Shown here: positions 21,849 through 55,499 of the stretch, in pieces | Position numbering within the stretch: the first letter of the stretch is position 1 | How the letters are laid out: every line of letters starts with the position of its first letter | NCBI GenBank assembly: GCA_015064245.1 | Contig: SVSQ01000001.1 | Span: forward strand, 11,433-75,432 | Source of the DNA: Oscillospiraceae bacterium | GTDB lineage: Bacteria; Bacillota; Clostridia; Oscillospirales; CAG-272 | Reading direction: 5' to 3' | DNA length: 64,000 nucleotides | Program-made: the position numbers and the translations under genes | Notes under the pieces: generated by a model | What the model was told of the DNA's origin: nothing | Database searches by the model: none | The model's input: the letters and a program-made list of their open reading frames with translations, nothing else

Positions 21849-21862
21849 GATAGATCCCTCCT

Positions 21863-22986: not shown

Positions 22987-25116
22987 TTACTGAGCTGTCT
23001 TATCGTAGCAGTAAACGATTGCGTTTGCAACGCCCCAGTCGGGGTTAACCTCGTAGCCGCCGATCTTAGCGTTGTAAAGATCGTGGTAAAGGTCAGAGTA
23101 AAGTGTGATCTCGGGAAGAACGTAGTTCCAACGAACGATGTAATCCATCCAGTAGTCCTTGAACTCTTCCTTGTTTGCTGCCTTGTAAACCATATCCCAA
23201 GAAAGCTCGTCGAGCTCCTTGTCAGCGAAGTAACCCATGTTACCCTGAGACATGTACATGTTCCAGATAGCGTCGATCATCTCGTTCTCTTCTGCTGTGT
23301 ACTTGGAAGCGTCTGCCTCTGTGTAGGTAGCGCCCTCGCAAGGAGCAACACCTGCGTAAACGAGGTTGGAGTTGGAGTACTTGGTCATCCAGTAACCTGC
23401 GTAGTCGTAAATAGGAGTGAAGCCTGTAGCAAGGTTGAACATGCTGTACTTAGGCTTGGAGTAGTCACCTGTTCTGTAGATAACCTCAAGAAGAATGGAG
23501 AAGTCCATAACATCCTGGCTGATTACCATACCTGCCTGAGCTGTTGTTGTAGCTTCCTTGAGCATAACAACGAGGAGCTCGGAAACAGGGTTGTCGGGAG
23601 TGGAAGCCCAGTTGAGTGCGAGAGGCATATAGTAGTCCTCGCCAACCTTAACTGTCTTGTACTCTGTAGCGCCGCACTGATAAGTAGCGTTATCGTTAAC
23701 AGCAGCCTCAGCAGCTGTGAGCTTCTTGTAACGGATACCTGTTGTGTAAGCGGAACCGTCCTTGTTGTAAACCCATCCGTCCTCTTCGAGGAGCTCGATA
23801 GCCTTATCAACGGAGAACTCATATGCATTGAGCTTAGGATCAAGCTCATCCTTTGTTTCCTGGTACATCCAGCTAGCAAGACCGTAGGGACCCTTTACAA
23901 GGCTACCATAACCACCGGTGTATGTGGAAGCGAATGTATTCTTATCGAGAAGGTGGCTGAGAGCGTGACGAACCTTAACGAACTGTGTAGGACCGTAGTC
24001 GTTCATAAGCTGAAGCTTACCGTAACCTGCTCTGAGGTAGTTGGTAACAGCGTACTTCTCGGGGTTAGCGTTAACGAGTGCGAGAGCTGCGTTGATATCG
24101 TCGCCGCCTGCGAGGCCTGCGATAACGTCAACACCGCCGCTCTGGAACTGGTCGAGCTGAGTCTCGGAAATAACCTTAACGTAGGAAAGATCCTTGATGT
24201 GAGGCTTCTGACCCTCGAAGTTTCCGAGGTACTGATCGTTGATTGTAAGAGTAGCAACGTGTGTGCTCTTATCCCAGTTTACGAACTTGTAAGGACCGGA
24301 GCAGGGACGCTCTGTAGTAGCGTAACGAGCCTTCTCGATCTGAGCAGCCTTAACGTACTTATCAGCGCCTGTCTCGTCCTTGGTCTTCTCATACCACTTC
24401 TCTGTGAGGTATGCGCCCTGACCGTCGTCCTTAACGTCTACGTCATCGCCGATCCAAAGCTTAACGGACATAGGAGAGAATGTAGCGTAGGTTGCCTCGT
24501 AGTAGTAGGGGAAGTAGTCAGCCTTCATTGTGTAGGAGAAGGTGTAATCGTCGTAAAGTCTGATACCGGAGAAAGGAGTGGGAGCGGTAGCTGCGTTGTA
24601 CTCAGCGTGGCCAACGTAGGAAGTACCGCCAACTGCCTTAACGCCTGCGTCAAGACATACGGGAGATGCCATTACGAGAGAATAAACAACGTAATCCTTA
24701 GCGGTGATTGCAGAACCGTCGGAATACTTAAGGTTATCATTGATGGTAACCTTGAATGTCTTGGAACCGTCGTCGTTGTCGATGATTTCGTAGCTCTTAA
24801 CAACAACCTTGGTGTCCCAAACGTATTCGCCTGCTTTTGTCTGCTGTACGCAAGCGTAGCCGTTTGTGAGGTCGCGGACGTCCTTGTCAGCCGCGTTGTT
24901 ACCCCATGTGGAAGAAGCGAAGTCGCTTCCGGAGAGTTCTGTGGTGCTACCGATGATCGCGGAGCCGCCTACCTTAACGGTATCGGTCGTCTCGTCGCCA
25001 CCGGGTGTCTTATCAGGATTCTCATCCTTGTTACAGGAGATCATGCTGACTGTAGCGCCTGCAATCATAGCGAAACAGAGAAGCATGCTGATAAGCATCT
25101 TGAGAGATCTTTTCAT
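22987..25116 (-). CDS. family-5 (OppA-like) ABC substrate-binding lipoprotein, 709 aa
   Basis: The signal plus lipobox-like sequence is MKRSLKMLISMLLCFAMIAGATVSMISC. The body is typical of peptide/nickel-type binding proteins. It heads the opp-like operon. Confidence 0.8.
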   Translation of the reverse strand: MKRSLKMLISMLLCFAMIAGATVSMISCNKDENPDKTPGGDETTDTVKVGGSAIIGSTTELSGSDFASSTWGNNAADKDVRDLTNGYACVQQTKAGEYVWDTKVVVKSYEIIDNDDGSKTFKVTINDNLKYSDGSAITAKDYVVYSLVMASPVCLDAGVKAVGGTSYVGHAEYNAATAPTPFSGIRLYDDYTFSYTMKADYFPYYYEATYATFSPMSVKLWIGDDVDVKDDGQGAYLTEKWYEKTKDETGADKYVKAAQIEKARYATTERPCSGPYKFVNWDKSTHVATLTINDQYLGNFEGQKPHIKDLSYVKVISETQLDQFQSGGVDVIAGLAGGDDINAALALVNANPEKYAVTNYLRAGYGKLQLMNDYGPTQFVKVRHALSHLLDKNTFASTYTGGYGSLVKGPYGLASWMYQETKDELDPKLNAYEFSVDKAIELLEEDGWVYNKDGSAYTTGIRYKKLTAAEAAVNDNATYQCGATEYKTVKVGEDYYMPLALNWASTPDNPVSELLVVMLKEATTTAQAGMVISQDVMDFSILLEVIYRTGDYSKPKYSMFNLATGFTPIYDYAGYWMTKYSNSNLVYAGVAPCEGATYTEADASKYTAEENEMIDAIWNMYMSQGNMGYFADKELDELSWDMVYKAANKEEFKDYWMDYIVRWNYVLPEITLYSDLYHDLYNAKIGGYEVNPDWGVANAIVYCYDKTAQ

Positions 25117-40750: not shown

Positions 40751-40800
40751 AAAAACAAAAAAATCTCTTCCACCGATAGTTTTTGCTATCGGTGGAAGAG
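40751..40800 (-). terminator. rho-independent terminator of the 7-gene operon
   Basis: The minus strand has a 15-bp stem ctcttccaccgatag / ctatcggtggaagag with loop caaaaa, followed by atttttttgttttt. Confidence 0.85.
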
Positions 40801-40879
40801 AAGTTTTGCGGTTTACCGAAGGCATGCAGCTTGACGTAGGCATGCATGCTTTCCTTTCAAAAGCGACCGTACTTTCTTT

Positions 40880-41944
40880 TTAACCCGTAATACCGGAACG
40901 CTCAATTCCTTCAACGAGGTATCTCTGACAGAACAGATATACAACGATCAGGGGAGCGATGATCATAAGACCAACGGTGTTCTGGATAGCAGCGGAGTAA
41001 AGGTTACCACCTTCGTACTGCGTATCGAGAGAACGGGGAGACTGACCTACAAGGTGAGGAAGCAGGTACATCTTAGACTTGTTATAGAACAGTCCTGTAT
41101 AGAACTCGTCTGTCCACTGCCATGAGAATGCGAACAGGAATACTGTGATCATCATAGGAACGGAAAGAGGAAGAACGATAAAGACGAAAGTCTTGAATAT
41201 ACCGTAACCGTCGATATAGGAGGACTCTTCGAGCTCATCCGGTACACCCTTGAAGAACTGTCTCATCATGTAGATGTAAAGACCGTTCTTGAACGCAAGT
41301 CCGCCCAGTGAAAGGAGAACGAGAGGCCAGAGTGTATTGGAGAAGTCGAGGTATGCGTGCTTACCGGGGATAATATCAAGTCCGGGGAACACTCCGCCGC
41401 CGAGAAGGTTAATGATTCCGTAAACGTCGAAATACTTAAACTTCATGAACAGAGAAAGCTGAATGGTGGAGTGAGGAACGATCATCGTAAGAAGAACGCA
41501 AGCGAACAGCAGCTTGGAGCCGCGGAACTTAAACTTAGCGAATCCGTAACCGATGATACTGCAGATAAGTGTCTGAACTATTGCAGATACCAAGGAAAGC
41601 AGGAAGCTGTTAAAGAGAGCCTCGAAATAACGAAGGTCAACTATAATAGCCTTGTATGTATCCCAAGTAGGATATTTAGGAATAAGCTTTACCGTAACGT
41701 CAACGAAGTCCTCAGGGCTCATGAAGGAGGAGGTGATCTTCGAGAAGAAGGGGTAAAGAATAACGTAAGAAACACCGAGAAGAAGAAGGAAACGGAAGAA
41801 TCTCCACATAATGTTCGCAAAGTACGACACTCTGAGGTACTTCATCTTCATTCTTTCTTTTCTGGAGGTTCTCTCAAAGTCTACGACTATCTTGTTTTTG
41901 GACTCCTTGACAACCTTTGGAGCCTCATTTACCTGATTATCCAT
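40880..41944 (-). CDS. MalG-type carbohydrate ABC permease (pair 1), with ~60-aa N-terminal extension
   Basis: This is a 354-aa ORF with RBS gaggagg. It has six hydrophobic segments and an EAA-like region DELEESSYIDGYG. Confidence 0.75.
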   Translation of the reverse strand: MDNQVNEAPKVVKESKNKIVVDFERTSRKERMKMKYLRVSYFANIMWRFFRFLLLLGVSYVILYPFFSKITSSFMSPEDFVDVTVKLIPKYPTWDTYKAIIVDLRYFEALFNSFLLSLVSAIVQTLICSIIGYGFAKFKFRGSKLLFACVLLTMIVPHSTIQLSLFMKFKYFDVYGIINLLGGGVFPGLDIIPGKHAYLDFSNTLWPLVLLSLGGLAFKNGLYIYMMRQFFKGVPDELEESSYIDGYGIFKTFVFIVLPLSVPMMITVFLFAFSWQWTDEFYTGLFYNKSKMYLLPHLVGQSPRSLDTQYEGGNLYSAAIQNTVGLMIIAPLIVVYLFCQRYLVEGIERSGITG

Positions 41945-41962
41945 CTTTGAAAACCTCCTCTC

Positions 41963-42931
41963 TTAGTCTCTTCTCTGATAGAATACGAACGCCGACATTG
42001 CAACGACGACAACGAGAACTATCAGAATAATGATTGCAAAGTAGATCCAAGCCATCGCAGCGGAAAGAACGTTACCGCCCGCCTCATTATACTTGGCGGT
42101 GATGAACACCATTACGGAGTTATCAGCAGAAGTAAAGGAGTCGATGACCGTATAGATCGTAGCAACGAGGATCATGGGGCTGATCATAGGAAGTGTGATC
42201 TTCCAGAAAGTCTCCCAAGTCGTTGCTCCGTCGATGGAGCAAGACTCGTAGATAGCGGGAGAAATAGACTGGAGCGCTGCGAGAAGGATAAGCATCTGAA
42301 CACCGCAACGGTCGATGATGCTGGAGATTCGTCCAACAGCTCCGACAACGAAGTCCGTGATCTCAGTACCTATCTTCATGCTCTCGAACAGACGTGTAAG
42401 GTTTCCAACACCGAGGTTGAAGCCGCTGTCCAGCGCACCTGTCGTAATACCTGCATCCTGGTTCATCATGTAATCGTCGTACGCGGAGGATGCAGCTGCG
42501 ATAGATCCCATAAGACCTGTCGCGCAGATGACGGGAATGAAGAAGATCGCTCTGAACGCTGCGCGTCCGAGAACCTTCTGGTTAAGGATAACTGCGATAA
42601 ACAGTGAGAAGATTACTATCGAAGGAATATCGATAATAAGGTTTTTAATACCGCTTGTAAGCGTCTGAACGAACTTAGGGTCAACGAACAGCGCTTCCTG
42701 GTAGTTCTCAAGACCTACGAATTCTATAACGAATCCCTGTGTTTTATCAAAAGTCATCGATGAAAGAGAATACTTGAAGGAATCCACTATAACGGGGAAA
42801 TAGATGAGGATAAGTCCGATAACGAAGGGCATTACGAACAGCCATCCACCCATTGCCTTACGCTTATCAAGAGAGGCTGCTCTGCGTCGTCTCGGAGCTG
42901 CCGTCCTCGACATTGATATTTTTCTATCCAT
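41963..42931 (-). CDS. MalF-type sugar ABC permease (pair 1)
   Basis: This is a 322-aa ORF with RBS aaaggaga. The basic N-terminus is followed by WLFVMPFVIGLILIYFPV. The EAA-like region is YESCSIDGATTWETFWKITLP. Confidence 0.75.
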   Translation of the reverse strand: MDRKISMSRTAAPRRRRAASLDKRKAMGGWLFVMPFVIGLILIYFPVIVDSFKYSLSSMTFDKTQGFVIEFVGLENYQEALFVDPKFVQTLTSGIKNLIIDIPSIVIFSLFIAVILNQKVLGRAAFRAIFFIPVICATGLMGSIAAASSAYDDYMMNQDAGITTGALDSGFNLGVGNLTRLFESMKIGTEITDFVVGAVGRISSIIDRCGVQMLILLAALQSISPAIYESCSIDGATTWETFWKITLPMISPMILVATIYTVIDSFTSADNSVMVFITAKYNEAGGNVLSAAMAWIYFAIIILIVLVVVVAMSAFVFYQRRD

Positions 42932-42950
42932 TTATATATCCTCTCCTTTC

Positions 42951-45900
42951 TTATGCGTTAGCCTTGGAATCATAGAAATCCATAGGCTCTACACTAATGG
43001 TCTGACCGTTGATCTCAACGTCAACTACGAATGTGTTGTAGTTGAGGATGAACCAGTGGCCGTTTTCGTACTCAACGTACACAACGGAACCGTCTGTAAT
43101 AGTTCTGTCGATTCTTGCAGCTTCTTTTGCCTCGTACTCTTCGAGCTTGATCTTATCCTGTCTGTCCTGATAGATCTTTCTGCACGCTTCGAGCACTGCA
43201 AGGTTACCCTGCTCTACGATCGCCGCTACCTCTTCGGGAGCCATGAACACGTAAAGTGTCGCGCTGTTATCGTAGATGTTGTACTGCTGGAGATAGATGT
43301 CTCTCTCCTCGCCTGTGTACTGGTTGCAGATTCTGTTGTAGTCGTTGATTCTTGCAGTCCAGTAGTCGATGAGCTTCTGCTCAACCGCCATATCTGCCAT
43401 CCATGCGATCTTAGCGTCACCCTTCAAGCTTTCAAGCTCAGAGTCTGTAAACTTACGTGTACAGTCGATGAAGAGGTGGTTTTCGATGCGGGATGTCTGA
43501 ACGTCTGCAAGAGCGTTGTTAAGCTTGTCATAAAGACCTTCGGAAACAACGTTGCCAGCCTCGTCGTACTGTGTAAGGAGGTGCTCCTTCCAGATATCGT
43601 AGGAGATAGCGTAGTACTTGGAGAGCCTGGGATCTTCCTTAAGAAGCTCAACGTTCTGATATGAGAGCATCATATAGAGTGTTGCGCCGTTTTCAAGGAT
43701 CTTAAGTGTTTCGTACTTGATATCGCCCGCCATGTTTGTGGGAGAACCTGCAAATACGATGTAGCCGTGGTAAACAAGTCCGAAGAATGGAACCGTCTCG
43801 GATGTGTTAAGGAAACGGCTGGAGTCCAGAGGAGCGTTGAGAACTACGGATGCGTAAGGTACTGCGTAAGCGTTACCGCAGTCAACGAGTATCTTGCCGT
43901 AGCTTTCGTTTACTGTGAACTGCTTGAGCATTTCTTCAGTAAACACCTTAGCGTCCTCACGGTTGTAAGGAGCGTCCTCGTCGAAGTCGGAGTTGAGGTC
44001 GGATCCGAGAGAGGAAAGAGAAACGTTCGTTGTCTTTCCGTCAAGGAGCTTAGTCATGGACTTATTGAACTTCGCGAAGAAGTCTCTGTAAACGCAGGGG
44101 GAGATACAGATCTTACCTGTTGTGGTAAATGTCTGGAGGACCGCGTCGTACTCTCTCTTTGTGATGTAACGGTTGTCGATCGTCTTGACTGCGTCTCTGT
44201 CATAAGAGAAGCCGTCGAAGAGTGAAACTGCCGTCATATACGCAAATTCGAATTCGGGGTAAACGTCGATACCGTGAGTAGCGGCGTAATCAAGGAAATC
44301 AAGGAATCCGGAGTTACCGCCGGTAACCTTCTCGAACTTTACCTTGGTGGGCATGGTGGGAACCATACCTTCGTTGATAAAGCCTGTGAGCTTGAAGTTG
44401 ATATTTGTGATGGGGGACTTAGCTGTGCCCAGCTCGTCGACCATCGCCTTGAGGTTTTCGAAGGATGTAAGAGCCTTCTTAACGGTTACAGGGATACTGA
44501 GGACCGTCTCGTCTGTTTCTGTAAGACCGAATACCTCAACGAAGAGCGGAATGTCCTTCTTGGTCTCCTCGATCTTTGTGATCTTTCCGGAAGTTTCCAG
44601 ATAGTCACGGTAAGCCTTAGCCATACCTACGTACGTAGGCTCGTAGTATGTTCTGTCGGCTCTTCTGTCCTTGGTATTATCGGGGTCTGTGAGCATTATG
44701 TAGTTGATTCTGAAGGAACCTGTGTACTTACGCTCGGAAACGACCGTATACTTTGTATTGGAACCGATGGAGATAGCCTCTGCAAGGTTGTAGGAGTCCT
44801 TAGGTCTGGGGTTGAAGGAGCAGAATACGGAGTTGTAGAAATGCTCACCCTTGTTCTTTGCGTTGGAACCACCGTGAGAGGATGTGATGTTCGTAAGAGC
44901 GTCACCCTCTGTTACGATAGCAACGTAACCGGAATCGTACTTCTTGATCTTGTTAGAGGGGATAAGGGAGCCTTCCTGAGGTGTGTTTGTGGAAACTACA
45001 CCGAAGACAGGCATACGGTAGACCTCCTGGTTTGCGTTACCGATCTCCTGGTAAGCGTAGTCCTGACCGTAGACCTTACCGCTGAGGTCGAAGGTCTTGA
45101 ACGTATCCTCGAATCTGATCAGCGTACCGGAACCGTCGGGAATGAAGGTATAGCCGTTGTAATCGTTGATACCTGCGCCCATGTACTGAAGAACTTCAAT
45201 AGAAGAGAGCTGGTAAAGGGACTCATCGAAACGGAGACCGCTCGCGGGGAAACGAACCTGAACGCCGTTATCCGTAAGGTAGTACTCCAGCGCCATCTTG
45301 AAGTTAGCGGGAGCCTTATCCTTATTTGTGTAGCCTGTTTCTCTGTGGTCTTTGTCAAGCTCCTCGAAGGTGTACTTAGGACAATATGTCTTGATGTAAC
45401 CCTCAACGAGCTTGATCTCACGAGCCTTTGCGGACTCGTCGAAGACGTAGATAGGAGTTGTTCTTGTGATAGGATATGCTTCGTACATCTGTTCCTTGGA
45501 CTGATCTGCGACCTTCTCGGGATCCTTCAGAGTGTACCAAGCTGTAGTACGGATGTAAAGACGGTTTTCTACACCGCCGGGAAGATTTGCAAGGAGCTGA
45601 CCGATGATCATCTCTTCAAATCTTGCCTGTGTGATCTGTCTGGGAACAAGAGTTCTGGACTCTTCTTCACCGATGGAGTACTCAATACGCACACCGCCGC
45701 TCAGCTTCTTTACCTTGATCTGCTCAAGGAGAGCAGCGTCGGTGAAGGAGTTGTAATGCTTAACGACGTCGTTATCGAGATAGTAGATATAAACTTGGCT
45801 GAGAAGCTTTCTCTTGGTTACGGCAGCGATCTGGTTATCGGGGATCTCCGTGATATTGAAGGGGTTTGTGAAGAGGATGTCACCTGTTGTGATATCCTTT

Positions 45901-46226
45901 ACAGCAACCTCACCCGTGATCTTATCAACGTAGAGCTCGAAGTCGCCTTTTGTGTACTGGAGAGTCATAGCGGCGATTCTCTTAGCTTCGGTTGAGAAGT
46001 CGGGGTTTTCAATACCTGCTTCCTTTTCTGCCTCGGTGGGAACGAATTCCGGCTTCAGATAGTACGCCTCGTACAGCTCTGAGAACGGGCGGATCTGCTC
46101 TTCCTCTTCCTCTTCTGCTGCAAATACCGGCAGCATCGAGAGCGAAGCCAGGATTCCGACTATTGTGAGGAGCGCGAGTAAACCGGAAAGCGATCTTGTA
46201 AATATATTATGTGTACTTTTTCTCAT
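42951..46226 (-). CDS. 1091-aa secreted/anchored protein of unknown function (possibly DUF5696-type, glycosidase-like barrel)
   Basis: The signal anchor is LSGLLALLTIVGILASLSMLPVFA, then AEEEEEEQ. There are no further TM segments. RBS is aggaagga. The family label is from memory only. Confidence 0.6.
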   Translation of the reverse strand: MRKSTHNIFTRSLSGLLALLTIVGILASLSMLPVFAAEEEEEEQIRPFSELYEAYYLKPEFVPTEAEKEAGIENPDFSTEAKRIAAMTLQYTKGDFELYVDKITGEVAVKDITTGDILFTNPFNITEIPDNQIAAVTKRKLLSQVYIYYLDNDVVKHYNSFTDAALLEQIKVKKLSGGVRIEYSIGEEESRTLVPRQITQARFEEMIIGQLLANLPGGVENRLYIRTTAWYTLKDPEKVADQSKEQMYEAYPITRTTPIYVFDESAKAREIKLVEGYIKTYCPKYTFEELDKDHRETGYTNKDKAPANFKMALEYYLTDNGVQVRFPASGLRFDESLYQLSSIEVLQYMGAGINDYNGYTFIPDGSGTLIRFEDTFKTFDLSGKVYGQDYAYQEIGNANQEVYRMPVFGVVSTNTPQEGSLIPSNKIKKYDSGYVAIVTEGDALTNITSSHGGSNAKNKGEHFYNSVFCSFNPRPKDSYNLAEAISIGSNTKYTVVSERKYTGSFRINYIMLTDPDNTKDRRADRTYYEPTYVGMAKAYRDYLETSGKITKIEETKKDIPLFVEVFGLTETDETVLSIPVTVKKALTSFENLKAMVDELGTAKSPITNINFKLTGFINEGMVPTMPTKVKFEKVTGGNSGFLDFLDYAATHGIDVYPEFEFAYMTAVSLFDGFSYDRDAVKTIDNRYITKREYDAVLQTFTTTGKICISPCVYRDFFAKFNKSMTKLLDGKTTNVSLSSLGSDLNSDFDEDAPYNREDAKVFTEEMLKQFTVNESYGKILVDCGNAYAVPYASVVLNAPLDSSRFLNTSETVPFFGLVYHGYIVFAGSPTNMAGDIKYETLKILENGATLYMMLSYQNVELLKEDPRLSKYYAISYDIWKEHLLTQYDEAGNVVSEGLYDKLNNALADVQTSRIENHLFIDCTRKFTDSELESLKGDAKIAWMADMAVEQKLIDYWTARINDYNRICNQYTGEERDIYLQQYNIYDNSATLYVFMAPEEVAAIVEQGNLAVLEACRKIYQDRQDKIKLEEYEAKEAARIDRTITDGSVVYVEYENGHWFILNYNTFVVDVEINGQTISVEPMDFYDSKANA

Positions 46227-46250
46227 ATTTAATATGCCATCCTTCCTGGT

Positions 46251-48488
46251 TTACATTCGGTACGTAATTTCCGTGATGATGTTCTTAACAAGACCAAACA
46301 TATCGGAAACGAGAGTTGCGAACAAAATAACGATAAACATTATGAATGCCATTCCCACGATTGTACCTATACACATCGCCGCGTTCTTTATGATGGAGTA
46401 GTCGTGAGTTACCATGATTCCGAAGAAGATGAGAAGTCCGACCCATATCCATGCAAAGGAGTTGAGCAGTGTGATGATTCCTGATTCGGAAGAAGCAAGA
46501 ATGTGTGTGAGAAGTGTTGCGGGAATGATCATGAGAGGCAGAGGAGTGAGCGAGTAGGAGGTAGCGATGAAGATGTCCTTCAGGCTTCCTTCACCCTCGA
46601 ACAGTGTGGTAAGACACCAGTTGGATACTACCCAAAGAGCGATCGGAATAAGTACCGCGCCCATCTGAGTACCGATACTGGAGTAAGTACCTCTCGGGTT
46701 ATACATATAGGAACGTCCTACGCTCTGGTATGTAAATACCAGGATCGTAACAGCCGCGTAGAAGATCGCGCCTCTTACCGATCCGCGTTTTTCGTGCTTG
46801 AGGTCCCAATATCCGTCGAAGGGATGGAACATCAGGTGGAATGCGAAGAGGATCTCCTGAGCGAAGGTTCTCTTTCCGGACGTTACAGCTGTCTTTGCGT
46901 TGACCTTTGCAGCGTACTTGAAGAAGAACGTAAGTCCTACTACAACTACTACCACAACGATCGGAACGATCACGATATACTTAGATACCCAGTCTTTTCT
47001 GTACATCTTGAATGCCTGAGAATAACCGTCGGTATTGTAAGCGAAGGAGTACTGCTCCATAGCCTCGGTGTAGTTACCGCCTCTGTAAAGAGACTTTGCC
47101 TTACCGATGTAAGCCGTATCGAAGTTGATATTTCTCTGAAGGATATTATCGTAGTCGGTTACAGCCAGCTCGTATTTTCTTTCGTTATCGTGCTTAAGAG
47201 CTGTAATGAGCAGGTCGCCGTACTCTGTTCTCTTATACTTTGTGATAGAGCAGGTCTGCTTGTCGAGAAGGATGATGTTATCTGTTCCGTTGAAGTTCTG
47301 ATAAGCGATGGACTCGATGGACTCGAGGTTACCGAGCTGCTTACCGCTGTCACCGAATGCGAACAGGAGGTTACCGTTCTTATCGTAGGTAAATACTCTC
47401 TGGCGCTTCTCGTCGATGATAGACCACGTTCCCTCCGGTCCTACTGCAACGTCGATGATACGGGAAGGTCCTGTTGCCTCGTTGTTACGGGAGACGTTTG
47501 CGACCTTGACCTCACCTGACGGAGGATAGAAACCGTTACGGTTCATGATGTCATCACCGTTGGTGTTGAGCTTCTTAACGGGAGCGTACGTAGATGACTT
47601 ATCTTTCTTGTTGATAGCGTTCTGCTGGTCCTTATCCTTAATAGACGATGTGGTTACGTAGATGAAGCCCTTCTCGTCCATTACGATATTGTTAAGCTCG
47701 GTAGCGACGATCTTCTGGGACTGCGCTTTCTGCTCCTCTGTCTGGAAAAGTCTCCAGAAAAGTGTGAGCGCGCTGACGGAAACCTTCTGAGCTCCGACAA
47801 ATCCCTGGAATTCGCCCTGCATATTCATGGAGATAACTCCCATGTACGTTGTAGAGGATACGACGTAGATATGGTTGTCATCGGATGCAACTGCGATCGG
47901 CTTATAGATAGAGCCGTCCGGGAAAACGTCTGCCTCGGGCTCCTTGATTATACGGTCAAAAGTAGGATGTGTACGACCTCCGTCGGAGCGGTTGAATACG
48001 ACGATTCTCTTGTTATCCGTATCAGCTATGTAGATCTTGTCGTTTGTAACGCACATACCGCTGGGATTGTTAAAGGAGTCGGTAGCGCCCATGTCGTTTT
48101 CAAAGTTTGTGATCTGATATCTGAACTGGAAATAAGGGTCGAGACAAACAACTCTGTGGAGCTTTTCGGTTCTCGTGGTAGGGTTACCGCTTGAATCGTA
48201 GTCGTCGAGCTCTCTGGTAGCAACGTCAACGATGTAGATGTTACCGTCAACGTCGACTACTATATCCTGGGGCTCTGTAAGGTTAAAACCTGTATTCTGA
48301 TAGATTTTGGTAGCTTCCGAATTGTAGAGCTTATCGGGCTCGTACGCATTGGGAGAATCCAGCTGTGTTCCATCTATCGAATAGGTGTACGAAGAGTATG
48401 CTGTTGCGTAAATGGGGAGTAACGTTACCAATATAGTAACAAGACACATCAGCATTCCCGCAGCAATTCTTAAACTTTTCTTGTTCAC
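46251..48488 (-). CDS. NHL-repeat beta-propeller / TPR-like / Yip1-type multi-pass membrane fusion protein
   Basis: The GTG start is at 48488 (RBS aagggaga). It has a signal anchor and NHL-like blades (NIYIVDVATRE, KIYIADTDNKRIVVFNR, HIYVVSSTT, FIYVTTSS). The C-terminal ~250 aa has 5-6 TM helices in a Yip1-like layout. Confidence 0.65.
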   Translation of the reverse strand: MNKKSLRIAAGMLMCLVTILVTLLPIYATAYSSYTYSIDGTQLDSPNAYEPDKLYNSEATKIYQNTGFNLTEPQDIVVDVDGNIYIVDVATRELDDYDSSGNPTTRTEKLHRVVCLDPYFQFRYQITNFENDMGATDSFNNPSGMCVTNDKIYIADTDNKRIVVFNRSDGGRTHPTFDRIIKEPEADVFPDGSIYKPIAVASDDNHIYVVSSTTYMGVISMNMQGEFQGFVGAQKVSVSALTLFWRLFQTEEQKAQSQKIVATELNNIVMDEKGFIYVTTSSIKDKDQQNAINKKDKSSTYAPVKKLNTNGDDIMNRNGFYPPSGEVKVANVSRNNEATGPSRIIDVAVGPEGTWSIIDEKRQRVFTYDKNGNLLFAFGDSGKQLGNLESIESIAYQNFNGTDNIILLDKQTCSITKYKRTEYGDLLITALKHDNERKYELAVTDYDNILQRNINFDTAYIGKAKSLYRGGNYTEAMEQYSFAYNTDGYSQAFKMYRKDWVSKYIVIVPIVVVVVVVGLTFFFKYAAKVNAKTAVTSGKRTFAQEILFAFHLMFHPFDGYWDLKHEKRGSVRGAIFYAAVTILVFTYQSVGRSYMYNPRGTYSSIGTQMGAVLIPIALWVVSNWCLTTLFEGEGSLKDIFIATSYSLTPLPLMIIPATLLTHILASSESGIITLLNSFAWIWVGLLIFFGIMVTHDYSIIKNAAMCIGTIVGMAFIMFIVILFATLVSDMFGLVKNIITEITYRM

Positions 48489-48505
48489 TTGCTTTTCTCC
48501 CTTCT

Positions 48506-49378
48506 TTAGTCTTTCATACCTGAAGATCCCATCGTTTCAACGATCTTACTCTGGGAGATCAGGAATACAATGATCGGAACGCTCATCATGATTACCGCTG
48601 CCGCAGAGCCTGCGCCCTGAGTACCGGAAGCGGAGATGATGGAGTTGATAGACTCGTCGAACGTTTTGAGGTTCTCGGAGTAAACGTAGCCGGATGCACC
48701 TGTATTCCAGACGTTCTGGAAGACGGTGATCATAAGTGTCAGCCAAGCGGGCTTAACCAGCGGCATTACGAGTGTGAGGTAGATTCTGAACTCAGAACAA
48801 CCCTCGATACGGGCAGCCTCGATCATGGAGTCGTGAATAGAACCGTCGATAAAGTTCTTCATCAGGTAAAGTCCGAGGGTAGATGCCCAGATAGGCACGA
48901 TAGAGATCGTGTATGTATTCAGCCAGTTGAGCGCTACGTAGATGATGAAGTGCGCGATACCGGTTACCGTTGACGAGATCATCAGGGAGTAAACGATAAG
49001 GTTGAACACCAGCTTAGAACCGGGGAAACGTACCTTGGATATAGAGTACGCAGCCATTGAACCGATGATAAGACATCCTACTGTTGCGCCCAGTGAAATG
49101 AACACTGTGTTGAAAAAATATCTTGAAAGCGGAACCCACGTGGAGGTCATGGACGCGAACAAGTCTATGAAGTTCTGGAACGTAGGCTTGATTACGTAGA
49201 ACAGCGGAGGTGTAAGGAACATCTCACCGATAGGCTTGAATGCTGTGATGACCAGCAGGTATGTGGGAAGGAACATGAATACACCGAAAATAAGAAGTAC
49301 TATTGTAATAGTAAGGTCACCGCCGACGCTTCGGTTAAGAACGACGGCGTGTTTTCTGGTTCTTAGTCTTTTAGCCAT
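48506..49378 (-). CDS. MalG-type carbohydrate ABC permease (pair 2)
   Basis: This is a 290-aa ORF. It has the EAA-like region IEAARIEGCSEFRIYLTLVMP and six hydrophobic segments. Confidence 0.8.
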   Translation of the reverse strand: MAKRLRTRKHAVVLNRSVGGDLTITIVLLIFGVFMFLPTYLLVITAFKPIGEMFLTPPLFYVIKPTFQNFIDLFASMTSTWVPLSRYFFNTVFISLGATVGCLIIGSMAAYSISKVRFPGSKLVFNLIVYSLMISSTVTGIAHFIIYVALNWLNTYTISIVPIWASTLGLYLMKNFIDGSIHDSMIEAARIEGCSEFRIYLTLVMPLVKPAWLTLMITVFQNVWNTGASGYVYSENLKTFDESINSIISASGTQGAGSAAAVIMMSVPIIVFLISQSKIVETMGSSGMKD

Positions 49379-49380
49379 GA

Positions 49381-50349
49381 TTACTTACCTACCTTACCTA
49401 AAGCATTCTTGATGAACAAGTTAGCGCCGAACATCAGCACGAACAAGAGCATCGAAATACAGGAAGCGTAACCGACCTCGAAACGGGAGCCCAGATAGTC
49501 CTGCATATGGTGCTGGAGCGTCCAAGCGACGTAGTCTGTCGAGGGGTTTCCGCAGAGAGCGTTTACGACTCCACCGAATCCGAACGCGCCTGTGATGGAA
49601 AGGACCGCACCGAACATAAGGATGGATTTCATCGAAGGAAGCGTTATGTACCAGAGCTCCTGCCAACGGTTCTTGACACCGTCAACGGCGCCTGCCTCGT
49701 AAAGGCTTCTGTCAACGCCCTGAAGACCTGCGATAAAGGAAAGGAACGCAGTACCGAGGGACGTCCATACAGAAACGATGATACAAAGGGGTACGATGTA
49801 ATCGGTATTCTGGAAGAATACGATAGGCTTTGAAATAACACCCAGCTTCATGAGCCAACCGTTTGCGATACCGTAGATATCTCCCTGGAAGATGAGCTTC
49901 CATACGAGGTAAGCGGATCCGGAAATGGAAGGTCCGTAGAAAATGAACGTTATAGCCGCTCTTACCTTAGGTCCCAGCTCGTTGATGAACCAAGCGAGAA
50001 GGAAGGAAAGGATGTAGGACAGAGGTCCTGTTGTGAGAGCGAATATCATTGTATTCTGGAATGCCGTAAGGAACAGGTCGTCTTCGAGGAAAAGACGGAT
50101 GTAGTTATCCATGAAACAGAATTCGGGCAATTCCAGCATATTAAAGTGTGTAAAACTGAGGAAGAATGTCATTACGACCGGGACAACGGTAAATGTAAGA
50201 AACATTATAAGGAAAGGACCAACCATTGCGTATCCAGCCCATTTTTTCTTCATCTCACGTCTTGTATACTGCCATCTTGTTACCTGTCTGTTCGAAGGCT
50301 GGTAATCCTCTTCAGGCATTTCCTGTGCAGCAACTACGTTATCTGACAT
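49381..50349 (-). CDS. MalF-type sugar ABC permease (pair 2)
   Basis: This is a 322-aa ORF with RBS taggaga. The EAA-like region is YEAGAVDGVKNRWQELWYITLP. It is separated by 2 nt from the next gene. Confidence 0.8.
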   Translation of the reverse strand: MSDNVVAAQEMPEEDYQPSNRQVTRWQYTRREMKKKWAGYAMVGPFLIMFLTFTVVPVVMTFFLSFTHFNMLELPEFCFMDNYIRLFLEDDLFLTAFQNTMIFALTTGPLSYILSFLLAWFINELGPKVRAAITFIFYGPSISGSAYLVWKLIFQGDIYGIANGWLMKLGVISKPIVFFQNTDYIVPLCIIVSVWTSLGTAFLSFIAGLQGVDRSLYEAGAVDGVKNRWQELWYITLPSMKSILMFGAVLSITGAFGFGGVVNALCGNPSTDYVAWTLQHHMQDYLGSRFEVGYASCISMLLFVLMFGANLFIKNALGKVGK

Positions 50350-50455
50350 ATGCTATCTCCTATTCTTAAATTTAATTTCCGGCCACCCGTCCGCATTGGC
50401 ATACGGACGGATAGCGATTACTTTATTTTTTTCTTTAAGGATACTTACGTTTTAA

Positions 50456-53400
50456 TTAACCGTAGTAATCGATAAAGGGCAGGTGATACTCTTCGCGCTT
50501 ACGGGAGAGCTCCTTGTTGATATCAACAACATAGTTGAGCAAGCTGTCAACTGCGTTTGCGTTGCTGTTATAAACTGCCAGGAATGCGAAGTTTACGTAA
50601 CGGCTGATATTATAATCACCGGGGTTGAAGGGAAGTCCCTTAAGGTGAGGGATCTGTTCCTTGATAGCTGCGAGCTCTTCGGATGTCCAAGCCTGCTCAA
50701 GGAGAGCGTTGAGGTTTGCGGAGTTGTACTTTTCAGTAGTATTCGCAGCTGTTGCCAGACGCTGTCTTGCGAGTCTCTTCTGAGCATCGAAGCCTGCGTA
50801 CCACTTCATGTACTTCCATACGTGCTGAGGATTATCGGAGCCTCTGGGGATTACGATACCTTCAACGTTCAGGATGGAAGAACGGTCAACGTGTCCGTCC
50901 TCGTGCTCCCAACCGATGAGGGATTCCATGGTCCAGAGACCACGGAGCTCGTAGTAGTCCATGAAGCTGTTGTACGTTGTCCAGTTAGCGACAACGATCG
51001 GGATCTCACCTGTACGGAAACGGGTAAGGTCGTAAGAGATAGGCAGAGAATAGTCGTTAAACAGAGAGCAGAGAGTATCGAAAGCTGCAAGGCACGTTGT
51101 AGACTGGTTGAATTCCTGATAGTCGTTTGCGTACATTGTCTCGCCCATCTGATACAGGAGCATCTGATAACCTGCAAGGGATGTCTGCATACCCATCGTC
51201 ATGTGCTGAGTTGTGAGAGTAGGAAGGATAGCGTAGAGCTCCTGCCATGTTCTCGGAGGCTTGAGATCGTACTTAGCGAAGATATCAATGCGGTAGAACG
51301 ACATCTCGAAGTTCATCGTACAAGGAAGCAGGTAAGTGATACCGTCAAGGGAAACTGCCTCGAGCGCTGCGTGAGAGAACTCAAGATCGGTAGTACCCGT
51401 GATATCCATGAACTTGCCCTTTTCCTCATTATAATAAGGAACGATGAATTCGCCGTCCTCGCCTCTGGGGCAGAGCTTGTCGAAATCCTCGTAGATCTCG
51501 TCGCCAACGCTCTTGCCTTCGGGGATAAGACCCTTATCTGCGTGCTCCTGGGTGTAGTCGGCGCTGAGCTTTTCAACACCGCTTCTGAGTCCCCAGTTGA
51601 CCGCAGTACCGGAGCCCATCATTGCAACGTCAGGTCCGACGCCTGCAAGAACGGATTCCTGAAGACCCTGCGCAACGTATCTGATGTTGACCGCAACGTT
51701 ACTTACGGGAGTAAACGCTGAGTCGATCATGGTACGGAGAATGAGGGCGTCCTCACGGGAGGTGGTGTTCCACATAAGGATCGTGCCTTCGTATTCGGAA
51801 GCATCCTTATCGGTCTTGAATCCGATTACGTTATAATCTTTAAAGAAGGAAGCGAAGAACGCCTTTGCCTCAAAGTAAGCCGCGTAGAATACGGTAGGCT
51901 TAGATCTCGGAACCTTAGTCTCGGGAGACTGGATACGGAGATGGTCGAGCTTCAGGGGCTGAGACAGAGACGTATACAGCCAGTTCTGAAGAGACGTGAT
52001 ATAGTTCTTAAAGGAAAGGAAGTTCGGCGCGATCTCGTACTCGTCTACCGCCATTCTCGCAACGAGCTGACGGATAGTATCCAGAGTAGCGATGTGCTGA
52101 CCTGTAGCGCCTGTGGTCTCAACGAGAGCGTTGTAGATTCTGTCGAGCTCAAGAGCGGAGTCAGCGAGGTTACCGATAACGTCGGGGATAAGGCTTGCGA
52201 ACATGTAGTCACGGCCTGTATCGGGGTTTGTACCGGTGATCTGGAGTATCTTCTGATACGAGGACGTCATCTTATTGATTACGGCTGCGATATCGTAAAT
52301 ATATTCAGCCATATCTCCGAGGACGACCTCCACCTCAACGGTATTCCAACCTTCTTTGAAGTAGAACAAGTAGTCCTGCTCGCCGTTTCCGAGCAATTCA
52401 TTCTGGAAGGAGGTGTCATAATTAAATCTGAGGAAACTCGCTTCACGGAACTGGATGTCTCCGTTGATCCTGATACGTCTGGACGAGAACATACCTGCTC
52501 TCGTGTTCTGACGGAAACGAGTCATAATGTTGTAAAGTCCCTCTTCCTTTATGTATACCTGGTAGGTCATGTACTGACCGACAACGCTGGAGTTGATGAG
52601 GTTGTAGACCAGGTTTGCGGGGTGGGAAGGAGAGTTGATACAGGAAGTACGGTCGGTACCGGGGAAGAGACACTGGTCAGAAACTCTGATCGGGCTCTCT
52701 GCCTCGACTATGTAAACGTCCTCGCCTGTATAGATCTCGATACCTGTACCGAGCCATCTCTGGAGCTGATAATCGTAGGAGTCCTCGGGCTTGTAGCCGT
52801 AAACTCTGATATCTTCAATAACGAGAGGCTCTCTGGTCGCCTCGAACGTAAGGTAATGATCGCCTTCGGTGAGGTAGAACTGGAAGGGTTCGACTGTGTA
52901 TCCCAGCCAGTCACGGATGAAGTAGGTTCTGAGCTGAGAAGCCTCAAGACGGTCGGGACGGATATCGTTATCCTGGATATCAAGGTCCCAAACGTAGTTA
53001 CCGGATCCGCCGGTAGCCTCTGCCCACGTCTGGTAAGCCGCCTCGTACTCAGCGTCGCTTTCGAAGCTGTCTCTCTTAGGCTCGTCTATACGGTAAAGGA
53101 TACTTGTACCGTCTGTACCAACGTACTCCCAGCTTCTGGGAATGTAGAGGTAACGGCACTCGTTGAAGGGAAGCTTACCGTCGATGTAGAACATACGCTC
53201 GATGGTTGTCTTCGTACTTACGATCTCATCGATTCCGTCGCCGTCGTAGTCGAAATACTCAACGGGAAGGTAATCGATATCTACGGAATACATACCCGCT
53301 TCCTTAACAGTGATCTTAAACGTCGTCTTTCCTCTTGCAGGCGTGTAAAGACCTGTAATGTTCAACTTACTGTCGTAATAGGTTTTGGGGTTTGAATCCG

Positions 53401-53755
53401 TCCAAGGCAGTCCGGTATTCGGGTCAACCAGGTGCTCGAAATACTTTCCGGTCTCAGGATCGATCGTAGCCTGCGGAACGAGCATGTTTACCGCAGTGCC
53501 TTTGATTTCCGATTCGTCACTTGCTACCGGGATAGCTCCCCATTTGCTGAGATACGTATCATAGGTCGTACCGCTGATAAGCGTAAGGATCTCTGCAAAG
53601 GTTCTGCCGCCGTATGTGTCTTCAACTTCTTCAACGTTCTCGATGTCTTCTGCAACGTCAGCTGCCGAAACAGCAGTAGCGAGGGGCATCACACTGAAGA
53701 GAGTCGCGACCAACAGAAGCACAGCAACAAATCTGCGTTTTTGCCAATGTTTCAT
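50456..53755 (-). CDS. 1099-aa extracellular solute-binding protein with N-terminal CBM-like beta-sandwich domains
   Basis: The signal peptide is MKHWQKRRFVAVLLLVATLFSVMPLATAVSA. There are two CBM6/35-like segments (KITVKEAGMYSVDIDY.., YQVYIKEEGLYNIMTRF..WNTVEVEVVLG). The C-terminal ~450 aa has a family-1 binding-protein layout. RBS is aggagga. Confidence 0.65.
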   Translation of the reverse strand: MKHWQKRRFVAVLLLVATLFSVMPLATAVSAADVAEDIENVEEVEDTYGGRTFAEILTLISGTTYDTYLSKWGAIPVASDESEIKGTAVNMLVPQATIDPETGKYFEHLVDPNTGLPWTDSNPKTYYDSKLNITGLYTPARGKTTFKITVKEAGMYSVDIDYLPVEYFDYDGDGIDEIVSTKTTIERMFYIDGKLPFNECRYLYIPRSWEYVGTDGTSILYRIDEPKRDSFESDAEYEAAYQTWAEATGGSGNYVWDLDIQDNDIRPDRLEASQLRTYFIRDWLGYTVEPFQFYLTEGDHYLTFEATREPLVIEDIRVYGYKPEDSYDYQLQRWLGTGIEIYTGEDVYIVEAESPIRVSDQCLFPGTDRTSCINSPSHPANLVYNLINSSVVGQYMTYQVYIKEEGLYNIMTRFRQNTRAGMFSSRRIRINGDIQFREASFLRFNYDTSFQNELLGNGEQDYLFYFKEGWNTVEVEVVLGDMAEYIYDIAAVINKMTSSYQKILQITGTNPDTGRDYMFASLIPDVIGNLADSALELDRIYNALVETTGATGQHIATLDTIRQLVARMAVDEYEIAPNFLSFKNYITSLQNWLYTSLSQPLKLDHLRIQSPETKVPRSKPTVFYAAYFEAKAFFASFFKDYNVIGFKTDKDASEYEGTILMWNTTSREDALILRTMIDSAFTPVSNVAVNIRYVAQGLQESVLAGVGPDVAMMGSGTAVNWGLRSGVEKLSADYTQEHADKGLIPEGKSVGDEIYEDFDKLCPRGEDGEFIVPYYNEEKGKFMDITGTTDLEFSHAALEAVSLDGITYLLPCTMNFEMSFYRIDIFAKYDLKPPRTWQELYAILPTLTTQHMTMGMQTSLAGYQMLLYQMGETMYANDYQEFNQSTTCLAAFDTLCSLFNDYSLPISYDLTRFRTGEIPIVVANWTTYNSFMDYYELRGLWTMESLIGWEHEDGHVDRSSILNVEGIVIPRGSDNPQHVWKYMKWYAGFDAQKRLARQRLATAANTTEKYNSANLNALLEQAWTSEELAAIKEQIPHLKGLPFNPGDYNISRYVNFAFLAVYNSNANAVDSLLNYVVDINKELSRKREEYHLPFIDYYG

Positions 53756-53960
53756 TTAGGGTTTCCTCCTGCCAAAAATAGGTATTGGGTTTATATTGCT
53801 TGAACGCGCCCGCGCGTCAAACTTTATGCCGGCTGACTTTTGCTCCTCTGAGCCGGTACGCCGATGACCGCTTCCAAAAACGTGCGTCCGCCGCCGTCCT
53901 TTTTCCCGGTCCGGCAAGCGCGTTACAACGCAGCATCACGAAAGTTTTTATTACTCCAAA

Positions 53961-53989
53961 ATTATATCATATAAAATATAAAAAGTCAA
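53961..53989 (-). promoter_or_regulatory. sigma-A type promoter of the 7-gene operon
   Basis: The minus strand reads TTGACT - 17 nt - TATAAT, ~200 nt upstream of the ATG at 53755. Confidence 0.6.
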
Positions 53990-54372: not shown

Positions 54373-54403
54373 AAAAAACAAAAAGGCGGGAAGTTCTCCC
54401 GCC
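54373..54403 (-). terminator. rho-independent terminator after the Gfo/Idh/MocA gene
   Basis: The minus strand reads ggcggga-gaact-tcccgcc followed by tttttgtttttt. Confidence 0.75.
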
Positions 54404-54452
54404 TTGATTTCAGCTCGACTGTTTACGCCCTTTATGCTTATGATCTTTATGC

Positions 54453-55499
54453 TCAATCAAAGAATACTGTCTTTCCGGTCTGCGCGGATTCGTAGATCGC
54501 TCTGATGAGACGTACCGCCTTCATAGACTCCTTAGGCATGATCTGGGGATCTCTGTCCTCGATAACAGCGTCTACCATATCCTCTACCTGAGTGACGTGA
54601 CCGTACTTACTGCCGTCGTAGGCGCAAGCGACGCGGTTACCTCTGCCGTATCTGTCCATCATGTCCTCTTCGTCTCTCTCGTCCTGACCTTCGATCTTCC
54701 ACAGCTTGAGAACGTCCGCGTTCACCTCGACCGCGCCCTTTGTTCCGTAGACCTGGATATCCGTGGAAAGTCCGGGATAGCAGCATGTACTTGAGACGAA
54801 AGTAGCCGTCGCGCCGCTCTTGAAGCGGATGATGGACGCCGTAAGGTCCTCAGTTTCGATATCGTGGTTGTTTATGGACATAGTCGACTGGACGCTGACG
54901 GGCTCACCCATGAGCCACTGCATGATATCCAGAGTATGTACCGCCTGATTGATAAGCGATCCGCCTCCGTCCATAGCCCAGGTTCCGTGCCAAGCCTGAG
55001 CGCCCTCGTAGTAGCTCTGCGCTCTGAACCACTTGACCGCAAAGGTTCCGAGGAACACCTTACCCAGCTTACCCGAATCTATCGCCTCTTTGAGAGGCTT
55101 CATTACCGCGTTATTACGGTTCTGGTAGATGCCGCCCGCCTTCTTACCCGTACGGATACGGGCGTCCTCTATCTTCTGCGCAGCCTCAACGGAAATATCG
55201 ATAGGCTTTTCGACCAGGACGTGCTTGCCCGCCTCCATAGCCTTCACCGCGTACTCCGCGTGCATACCGCTGGGCAGACAAATACTTACGATGTCGATTT
55301 CGAGATTTTTCAGCATTTCATCAAAATCCGTATAAGCTAAAACCTCAGGATGCGCATCAGTGACCTTCTGCATCTTTTCGGGAACTATATCGCAGACTGC
55401 GACCAGCTCGCATTTATCGTATCCGAGAGCCGCCTCGACGTGAGCCTTTCCGACTCCGAGTCCCGCTACCGCATAACCTATCTTATTGTTCTTCGTCAT
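54453..55499 (-). CDS. Gfo/Idh/MocA-family NAD(P)-dependent oxidoreductase
   Basis: The N-terminal Rossmann region is IGYAVAGLGVGKAH and the EKP motif is VLVEKPI. Length is 348 aa. Confidence 0.8.
   Translation of the reverse strand: MTKNNKIGYAVAGLGVGKAHVEAALGYDKCELVAVCDIVPEKMQKVTDAHPEVLAYTDFDEMLKNLEIDIVSICLPSGMHAEYAVKAMEAGKHVLVEKPIDISVEAAQKIEDARIRTGKKAGGIYQNRNNAVMKPLKEAIDSGKLGKVFLGTFAVKWFRAQSYYEGAQAWHGTWAMDGGGSLINQAVHTLDIMQWLMGEPVSVQSTMSINNHDIETEDLTASIIRFKSGATATFVSSTCCYPGLSTDIQVYGTKGAVEVNADVLKLWKIEGQDERDEEDMMDRYGRGNRVACAYDGSKYGHVTQVEDMVDAVIEDRDPQIMPKESMKAVRLIRAIYESAQTGKTVFFD

Follow-up and report, generated by a model that had tools for sequence, protein, structure and literature searches.

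Firmicutes of gut and soil are major fibre degraders, but the current picture of how they take up glycans does not go beyond one substrate-binding protein (SBP) plus two permeases. In Firmicutes, for example S. pneumoniae, CUT1 ATP-binding cassette (ABC) sugar importers (TC 3.A.1.1) commonly share an orphan MsmK/MsmX ATPase, with none encoded in the operon (PMC3302838); such importers have MalF/MalG-type heterodimers with EAA loops and a MalE-like oligosaccharide-binding domain. The β-mannan loci of Roseburia intestinalis are Gram-positive polysaccharide utilisation loci (PULs), in which glycans are captured and cleaved at the surface, the oligosaccharides enter through an ABC importer, and breakdown follows inside the cell (PMC6385246). 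Here we analyse an operon of seven genes (40880-53755, all on the minus strand) in a 64,000-nucleotide stretch of DNA from an Oscillospiraceae bacterium (contig SVSQ01000001.1), the whole of which is called the window below. In order, the operon encodes a giant SBP, a CUT1 permease pair (P1a and P1b), a protein that joins a predicted NHL propeller to a Yip1 membrane domain (NHL/Yip1), a DUF5696 protein, and a second CUT1 permease pair (P2a and P2b).

The operon shares with CUT1 importers its MalF/MalG-type pairs with EAA loops, a MalE-like domain, and the lack of an ATPase gene. It differs in having two permease pairs per operon, a binding protein ~2.5 times the normal size with extra domains and no lipobox, and three obligatory accessories (NHL propeller, Yip1 domain, and DUF5696), which described CUT1 systems lack. 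These same features (second permease pair, oversized multidomain SBP without a lipobox, NHL propeller, Yip1 domain, and DUF5696) distinguish it from a CUT1 importer set within a PUL, which it otherwise resembles in its working. Described PULs have one ordinary SBP, one permease pair, and an endo-enzyme bearing a carbohydrate-binding module (CBM), whereas the cassette described here is a core of seven to nine genes accompanied by varied enzyme sets. In Bacilli the core lies, as in those PULs, beside regulators and glycoside hydrolase (GH) genes of the GH26/GH130 or GH10/GH43 kind, but in the window's clade it stands alone, without regulator or enzymes. An analogy can be drawn with the SusC/SusD systems of Bacteroidota, in which a conserved uptake core is likewise accompanied by enzymes and binding proteins that vary with the substrate; neither the proteins nor the envelope is related, and the likeness is one of organisational logic only.

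We put at roughly 0.5 the probability that the operon is a self-contained glycan-uptake cassette, widespread in Bacillota, in which two CUT1 channels work with three conserved surface proteins and a shared MsmK/MsmX-type ATPase. A role in the capture, processing, and import of glycans appears the more likely one because of the GH-like fold of DUF5696, the CBM-like modules of the giant SBP, and the hemicellulase and regulator genes that adjoin the cassette in Bacilli. An earlier note on this DNA had proposed an undescribed envelope system for capture, processing, and import; co-conservation, predicted folds, and the Bacilli context all support that proposal, with the role itself still a prediction. 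The possibility raised there that the giant proteins belong to well-characterised families was not borne out, as sequence searches gave generic SBP and NHL matches only. The note knew of no functional description, and our literature search likewise found no paper describing the system, none mentioning DUF5696, and none relevant to NHL together with Yip1 or to Yip1 with ABC, SBP, GH, or Paenibacillus.

The gene set is strictly co-conserved. In a scan of one genome per species, DUF5696 relatives of the window type occurred in at least 529 species genomes; the best 80 loci of these were kept, and almost all come from uncultured gut or digester Clostridia. The window-related set comprised 83 loci (DUF5696 identity 40-100%), of which L001 and L002 represent the same place twice. 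The order SBP>P1a>P1b>NHL/Yip1>DUF5696>P2a>P2b was identical in all 67 complete window-type loci, and every incomplete locus was cut by a contig end. Flanking genes vary from locus to locus, with no recurring ATPase, regulator, or enzyme; the commonest flanking family, a cysteine desulfurase-type aminotransferase, was present in 19 of 82 loci, and the conserved flanks in the window's own clade are lineage-level housekeeping synteny only. An independent query with the most distant giant-SBP homologs (~30% identity) led to the same cassette in five of five look-ups. The earlier note had suggested testing neighbourhood conservation, and the seven genes are co-conserved.

A second type of cassette, here termed compact, was found with an 877-amino acid DUF5696 query. 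This query brought in cassettes from cultured Bacilli, namely many Paenibacillus as well as Gracilibacillus oryzae, Bacillus sp. JCM 19034, Lederbergia, and Alkalicoccobacillus. Neighbourhoods of this kind, which the note mentioned for Paenibacillus and Clostridia, do occur in both. The compact type occurred in at least 563 metagenome stretches, and the metagenome scan added 80 further loci. Counted over loci with enough flank, P2a and P2b lie directly downstream of DUF5696 in 72/72 window-type and 69/69 compact-type loci (141/141 in total), and NHL and Yip1 lie directly upstream in 74/74 and 68/68 (142/142 in total). The giant SBP with P1a/P1b is present in 46/46 window-type and 34/38 compact-type loci (80/84 in total). 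A small SBP occurs in 36/38 compact-type loci and in 1/46 of the window type; it is ordinary, with ~470 amino acids and a classic lipobox, and the window's clade has lost it. The cassette persists in Bacilli down to ~25-30% identity.

The two halves of the cassette are separable but linked. Module A consists of the giant SBP and P1a/P1b, and module B of NHL, Yip1, DUF5696, and P2a/P2b. They behave as modules because they can swap order, as in L088, L138, L146, L147, L159, L162, and L170. Four compact-type loci (L140, L141, L143, and L144) have module B without the giant-SBP module in their contig flanks, and two of these (L141 and L144) keep the small SBP; module B may work without module A.

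Several loci depart from the common layout in other ways. Seven window-type loci (L030, L037, L043, L047, L063, L064, and L071) have ~1.7 kb extra between the DUF5696 match and P2a, which could be a longer DUF5696 C-terminal extension or an inserted gene. Two distant cassettes have extra upstream genes: a CBM6-containing 506-amino acid protein and an unannotated 481-amino acid protein in one (L084:72-3029), and in the other (L086:169-1551) a 460-amino acid protein without a precomputed Pfam hit that matched the small-SBP query by tblastn. One cassette (L054, JAGARL010000319.1) is labelled as from the archaeon Methanocorpusculum sp.; its layout and its identities to the window proteins are the same as those of contig L055 from an Oscillospiraceae metagenome-assembled genome (MAG), and it is probably a binning contaminant in an archaeal MAG.

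The compact-type loci place the cassette among polysaccharide-degrading enzymes. In cultured Bacilli a LacI or an AraC/response-regulator gene precedes the cassette and differing enzyme sets follow it: DUF5060/GH26/GH113/GH9 in P. silvisoli, GH10/GH10/GH43 in Gracilibacillus oryzae, and GH30 in Paenibacillus sp. KS-LC4, with GH35, GH3, or GH130 adjoining other variants. A Pfam tally of 299 flanking open reading frames (ORFs) from 79 non-redundant compact-type loci gave GH10 (16), GH43 (14), GH26 (8), and GH130 (6), along with CBM6 and CBM35; GH3, GH5, GH18, GH30, GH31, GH67, GH95, GH1, GH88, alpha-galactosidase, and sulfatases were also present. Regulators in these flanks were AraC-type (11), response-regulator (8), and LacI-type (10). 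Transporter, regulator, and glycoside hydrolase genes are therefore co-located, as in a PUL, in Bacilli and other compact-type relatives. Because the enzyme sets differ among these loci, one core is reused with enzymes for chemically different polymers.

Which component follows the polymer was assessed from 12 xylan-type and 15 mannan-type loci, as the ratio of within-class to between-class identity. Host phylogeny confounds these ratios with a bias common to all components, and the ratio was 1.59 for the small SBP, which diverges most, 1.28-1.32 for the module B parts, 1.23 for the giant SBP, 1.14 for P1b, and 1.06 for P1a, which diverges least. Because the bias is common to all components, this ranking points to the small SBP as the chief determinant of specificity and to module A as the least specialised part.

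All four permeases match BPD_transp_1 above the Pfam cut-off and have an EAA coupling loop, the docking site for an ABC ATPase, as expected of CUT1 membrane subunits. Their closest NCBIfam likeness is to UgpA/UgpE/MalG, below equivalog cut-offs. P1a and P2a share 25% identity and P1b and P2b 22%; by this measure the two pairs are old paralogs. A search for Walker A and LSGGQ motifs found no ABC ATPase in the operon and none adjacent to the cassette in 171 loci and the window, and only 7 of these 172 sources hold any such ORF. The lack of a linked ATPase is normal because Firmicute CUT1 systems share MsmK/MsmX. Because their EAA loops are intact, both permease pairs probably depend on an ATPase partner of the MsmK/MsmX type encoded elsewhere. 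The earlier note had stated that the window contains no ATPase; this holds for the operon but not for the window, which encodes two ABC ATPases ~21 kb away. Two further roles were considered and rejected, namely export or EPS synthesis, as the transmembrane domains are importer-type and SBP-dependent, and sensing alone, as the cassette retains intact EAA loops and has no signalling domain such as a kinase.

The giant SBP supplies the MalE-like domain of a CUT1 importer, as judged both by Pfam and by its AlphaFold2 model (predicted local distance difference test score [pLDDT], 86.8). The SBP_bac_8/1 match (47.7 bits) is confined to amino acids 778-998. In the model, an N-terminal hydrophobic helix is followed by two β-sandwich CBM-like domains (~124-320 and 348-478), a four-helix bundle or stalk (482-597), and a MalE-like oligosaccharide-binding domain (~600-1099). 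The C-terminal half resembles oligosaccharide SBPs in Foldseek comparisons (target-normalised TM-score 0.65-0.79), and the nearest solved relatives of the MalE-like domain bind cyclo-isomaltooligosaccharides, cycloalternan, lacto-N-tetraose, and sophoro-oligosaccharides. The sandwich domains of giant-SBP homologs have weak CBM_35 and Golvesin_C matches, and the N-terminal half has as many invariant residues as the SBP domain. No NCBIfam family was matched. Unlike the small SBPs, every giant-SBP member lacks a lipobox.

The NHL/Yip1 protein contains, from N- to C-terminus, a signal peptide, the predicted NHL propeller (44.1 bits vs. a Pfam cut-off of 20), a TPR-like segment, a transmembrane helix (505-523), a conserved motif, and the Yip1 domain (51.2 bits vs. 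a cut-off of 28.6; amino acids 551-720). The PDB sequence matches of the NHL part are the NHL domains of TRIM71, Thin, and Brat. Five hydrophobic segments lie within 505-727, in keeping with the multi-pass topology of Yip1, here a five-helix domain; the motif ahead of the helical bundle, HPFDG(F/Y)WDLK(Y/H)E, is predicted to be cytoplasmic and occurs in both the window-type and the compact-type lineages. The window type has NHL and Yip1 in one fused protein, whereas most compact-type loci, those of Bacilli included, encode them by two separate genes; the C-terminal transmembrane helix of the split NHL protein is the counterpart of helix 505-523. For the fused architecture alone, a search at E<=1e-30 gave 1,184 representatives (50%-identity clusters). 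Bacillus subtilis YknW, which modulates the ABC transporter YknWXYZ, sets a precedent for a Yip1-family accessory (PMC4338810). As in the cassette, this multi-pass membrane protein is encoded with an ABC transporter; however, YknWXYZ belongs to the MacB-type exporters and includes a membrane fusion protein, whereas the cassette has importer-type permeases and its Yip1 domain is linked, within one protein or as a neighbouring gene, to a predicted extracellular NHL propeller.

The DUF5696 protein matches its Pfam family (PF18952) with E = 2.5e-122 (409.9 bits vs. a cut-off of 25.6). An AlphaFold2 model built on 54 homologs (pLDDT 82.7; predicted TM-score 0.78) has a signal or anchor helix, an N-terminal domain, a β-sandwich, and a (β/α)8 barrel (~530-870), followed by a coiled-coil extension (928-1038) and a small C-terminal β domain. 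A lipobox is present in some Bacilli members. The closest structure in the PDB by Foldseek was the GH129 3,6-anhydro-D-galactosidase ZgGH129 (5OPQ; E = 1.8e-23, target-normalised TM-score 0.69), and further matches were the GH129 α-N-acetylgalactosaminidase NagBb (5wzr; E = 6.8e-17), GH101 endo-α-N-acetylgalactosaminidases (E = 1e-11 to 1e-10; 5a58, E = 1.3e-11), and several GH36/GH31 entries (E = 1e-9 to 1e-6). All these fold matches have 8-12% sequence identity, with Foldseek probability 1.0 for GH129/GH101. The catalytic domains of GH101 and GH129 are GH13-like, partially broken barrels (PMC8106489), and the β-sandwich plus GH13-like barrel architecture of these families is present in the DUF5696 model. 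The retaining α-glycosidases of GH129 (5OPQ; NagBb, 5WZN) and GH101 (SpGH101, 5A55; EngBF, 2ZXQ) differ from DUF5696 in lacking its extra N-terminal and coiled-coil regions and its obligatory transporter context. A single-sequence search of the PDB gave no match and a 54-sequence profile only noise; no GH Pfam match was found in eight members even at E<=10, and no NCBIfam family was matched. Because no sequence method ties DUF5696 to GH129/GH101, the modelled protein is a fold-level relative of these families and not a member of them.

Catalytic candidates were judged by conservation at the barrel strand ends. In the window's subfamily, D743, D747, and D749 (in the loop after β4) and D782 (after β5) are invariant. 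They are 33-39 residues apart, a spacing that resembles that of the catalytic pair D764/E796 named in GH101 PDB entries. D747 is kept in 36 of 39 sequences, and D364, another conserved residue, is part of a PDGSG motif. This pattern does not single out the catalytic residues, and catalysis by DUF5696 is no more than plausible.

The cassette could operate as follows. With its CBM-like modules, the membrane-tethered giant SBP would capture glycan chains or large oligosaccharides, and its MalE-like domain would hand oligosaccharides to P1a/P1b. DUF5696, at the surface, would trim or cleave the captured glycan with its GH129/GH101-like barrel. The Yip1 membrane domain and the outward-facing propeller might keep the module B parts beside P2a/P2b, which would import the DUF5696 products, assisted in most lineages by the small lipoprotein SBP. 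An MsmK/MsmX-type ATPase encoded elsewhere would power both channels.

More tentatively, and with doubts that outweigh our confidence, we suggest that these parts form a hitherto unrecognised multiprotein machine for glycan uptake in Gram-positive bacteria. In it, a Yip1-type membrane scaffold would physically link two ABC translocons to a surface β-propeller and to DUF5696, which would be the first member of a new glycosidase family with a distant relationship to GH129/GH101. Of the two modules, the one with the giant SBP would be generic and the one with the small SBP and P2 specific to the substrate. The logic of such a machine, put to use for xylan, mannan, and other glycans in turn, would make it the Firmicute counterpart of Sus-like systems. 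In any case, the cassette extends what is described for Firmicute glycan uptake, in hundreds of species, by a second translocon and by three surface components that are conserved but uncharacterised. If it is one machine, the way in which Gram-positive PULs are defined and predicted would change, DUF5696 and bacterial NHL-Yip1 proteins would gain a function, and a new glycoside hydrolase family might be defined. The hypothesis is directly testable, as the cassette is present in cultured, tractable Paenibacillus and Gracilibacillus beside xylanase and mannanase genes.

Several observations weigh against the uptake reading as set out above, in addition to the confounding of the identity ratios by host phylogeny. 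Across both DUF5696 subfamilies (25-31% identity) only D364, D747, R756, N785, N831, and E845 persist; invariance of the β5 acid D782 is confined to the subfamily of the window, and position 782 varies across both. GH129, GH101, GH31, and GH36 enzymes cleave α-linkages, unlike the enzymes that neighbour the cassette, which target β-linked xylan and mannan. Because GH129-like folds cut α-linkages and the partner enzymes act on β-linked backbones, backbone cleavage by DUF5696 is unlikely; a debranching, transglycosylating, or purely binding role is possible. The flanks in the window and its clade contain neither a regulator nor a recognised GH and thus no co-located PUL, and the absence of the small SBP from this clade leaves P2a/P2b without an obvious binding protein.

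The first of these observations bear on an explanation that keeps the uptake role and makes DUF5696 a noncatalytic pseudo-glycosidase, binding glycan or serving as a scaffold at the membrane like the surface glycan-binding proteins of Sus-like systems. It would account for the canonical β4/β5 strand-end acids not being conserved family-wide, for the lack of a sequence or profile link to any GH family, and for the occurrence of one family with enzyme sets for chemically different polymers, in loci whose flanks already supply backbone-cleaving and debranching enzymes. We nevertheless consider it rather unlikely, as each subfamily has its own invariant acidic or polar residues near the barrel strand ends, the spacing from D743/D747/D749 to D782 is GH101-like, and the six residues that persist between subfamilies point to a stronger constraint than scaffolds usually need.

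The bare flanks of the window's clade suit a different explanation, in which the cassette there serves envelope housekeeping, either in the turnover or recycling of the cell's own wall polysaccharide or capsule or in the uptake of ubiquitous host or own-cell glycans. Regulator and glycosidase genes are absent next to all 82 window-type loci, in which the small SBP is also nearly always missing, and the operon in the window is flanked by housekeeping genes, with M16 peptidases, lgt, folD, and whiA at one end and a GFO/IDH/MocA oxidoreductase, yfbR, thyX, purL, and purD at the other. Its promoter is near consensus, no catabolite-responsive (cre) site was found there, and the breadth of occurrence (at least 529 species genomes) is also as such a function would have it. 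Set against these points are the importer-type nature of all transport parts, with SBP-dependent transmembrane domains and EAA loops, the position of the homologous Bacilli cassette in classic hemicellulose loci, and a conserved leader element that suggests regulated rather than constitutive expression; envelope housekeeping is improbable on balance.

This leader element lies in the ~200-nucleotide leader of the operon (Table 1). Its core, CCGGCUCAGAGGAGC, is invariant in nine species (the window and eight relatives) in a leader that has otherwise diverged, and a covariance model located two more in a subclade further removed from the window, where the element likewise immediately precedes the giant-SBP gene. 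Sites of the element are L004:2433-2487, L005:2167-2220, L006:2370-2425, L008:2379-2432, L009:2378-2431, L010:2359-2412, L013:2314-2368, L020:2433-2488, L017:2792-2848, and L051:2794-2851. In a hairpin-plus-pseudoknot model, 95.6% of cells are paired and there are two compensatory pairs, with 19 of 500 shuffles reaching the covariation score, a modest statistical support for a structure that the element may form. The whole leader folds no more stably than shuffles (z = -0.35), and no Rfam family was matched in 40-55 kb, leader element included. The element may act as an operon-specific cis-regulatory RNA or protein-binding site.

The least credible explanation, two ordinary and independent sugar ABC importers that merely adjoin unrelated surface proteins, draws on the likeness of each permease pair to a standard CUT1 pair, the two SBPs for two pairs in Bacilli, and the swapping of modules, but hardly accommodates the co-occurrence in 141/141 and 142/142 loci over Clostridia and Bacilli to ~25% identity amid unrelated flanks, the fusion of NHL and Yip1 in one lineage and their separation in another, and the divergence in step of the module B components (ratios 1.28-1.32).

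The features of the operon are collected in Table 1. The intergenic gaps are 106, 2, 17, 24, 19, and 18 nt, and the coordinates of the seven ORFs, given in the earlier note as 2-106 nt apart, were reproduced exactly. Coding sequence totals 12,690 nt, of which 8,814 nt are in the three large genes (745-1099 codons), in agreement with the 8.8 of 12.7 kb stated before, and the domains assigned at that time (SBP, four permeases, NHL and Yip1, and DUF5696) agree with Pfam. The TTGACT-17-TATAAT promoter reported there is the best-scoring promoter-like site of the region (53989-53961), and its hexamers are kept in 6-7 related species. A terminator is present 3' of the last gene as described, but its stem has 16 bp (8 of them GC pairs) rather than 15. 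Inside the operon, 17 promoter-like matches were found against 17.2 expected by chance, and 16 terminator-like matches against 14.7, none of them strong. Because these internal matches are weak and at chance frequency, the sequence is consistent with the seven genes being one transcription unit.

Table 1. Operon features in window coordinates, in the direction of transcription.
Feature	Position	Strand	Size	Description
Promoter	53961-53989	minus		sigma-70-type, TTGACT-17-TATAAT with TG extension; 11/12 match
Conserved 5'-leader element	53822-53877	minus		GGAAGCGGU..GGC..ACCGGCUCAGAGGAGCAAA..AGCC; candidate hairpin/pseudoknot
Giant binding protein gene	50456-53755	minus	1099 aa	
Permease P1a gene	49381-50349	minus	322 aa	UgpA/MalF-like CUT1 membrane subunit, EAA loop
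Permease P1b gene	48506-49378	minus	290 aa	UgpE/MalG-like CUT1 membrane subunit, EAA loop
NHL/Yip1 gene	46251-48488	minus	745 aa	GTG start
DUF5696 gene	42951-46226	minus	1091 aa	
Permease P2a gene	41963-42931	minus	322 aa	UgpA/MalF-like, EAA loop
Permease P2b gene	40880-41944	minus	354 aa	MalG-like, EAA loop
Intrinsic terminator	40754-40801	minus		stem-loop 40801-40764; 16-bp stem, 6-nt loop, T-run

The gene for the GFO/IDH/MocA-family oxidoreductase (54453-55499, minus strand), which adjoins the operon on its upstream side, has its own terminator (54383-54405) and recurs as a neighbour in six of the closest relatives. The protein may be a cassette-linked sugar dehydrogenase, or its position could reflect lineage synteny only. 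The only glycosidase-like gene among the window ORFs scanned (1473-4040, minus strand) encodes an 855-amino acid protein with a weak Glyco_hydro_106 (α-L-rhamnosidase) match (E = 2.5e-10). A 688-amino acid ORF (12963-15029, minus strand) has no Pfam match at E<=1e-5.

The two ABC ATPases of the window (18660-19703 and 17063-18895; ABC_tran and oligo_HPY) belong to a separate Opp/Dpp-type operon (17063-25116, minus strand). This operon encodes an SBP_bac_5 protein (709 amino acids), an OppB-like permease, an OppC-like permease, an OppD-like ATPase, and an oversized OppF-like ATPase of 610 amino acids. The OppC-like permease (19812-21848; 678 amino acids) has an RCC1-like β-propeller inserted between its N-terminal transmembrane segment and its permease domain, a second β-propeller attached to an ABC importer in the source genome.

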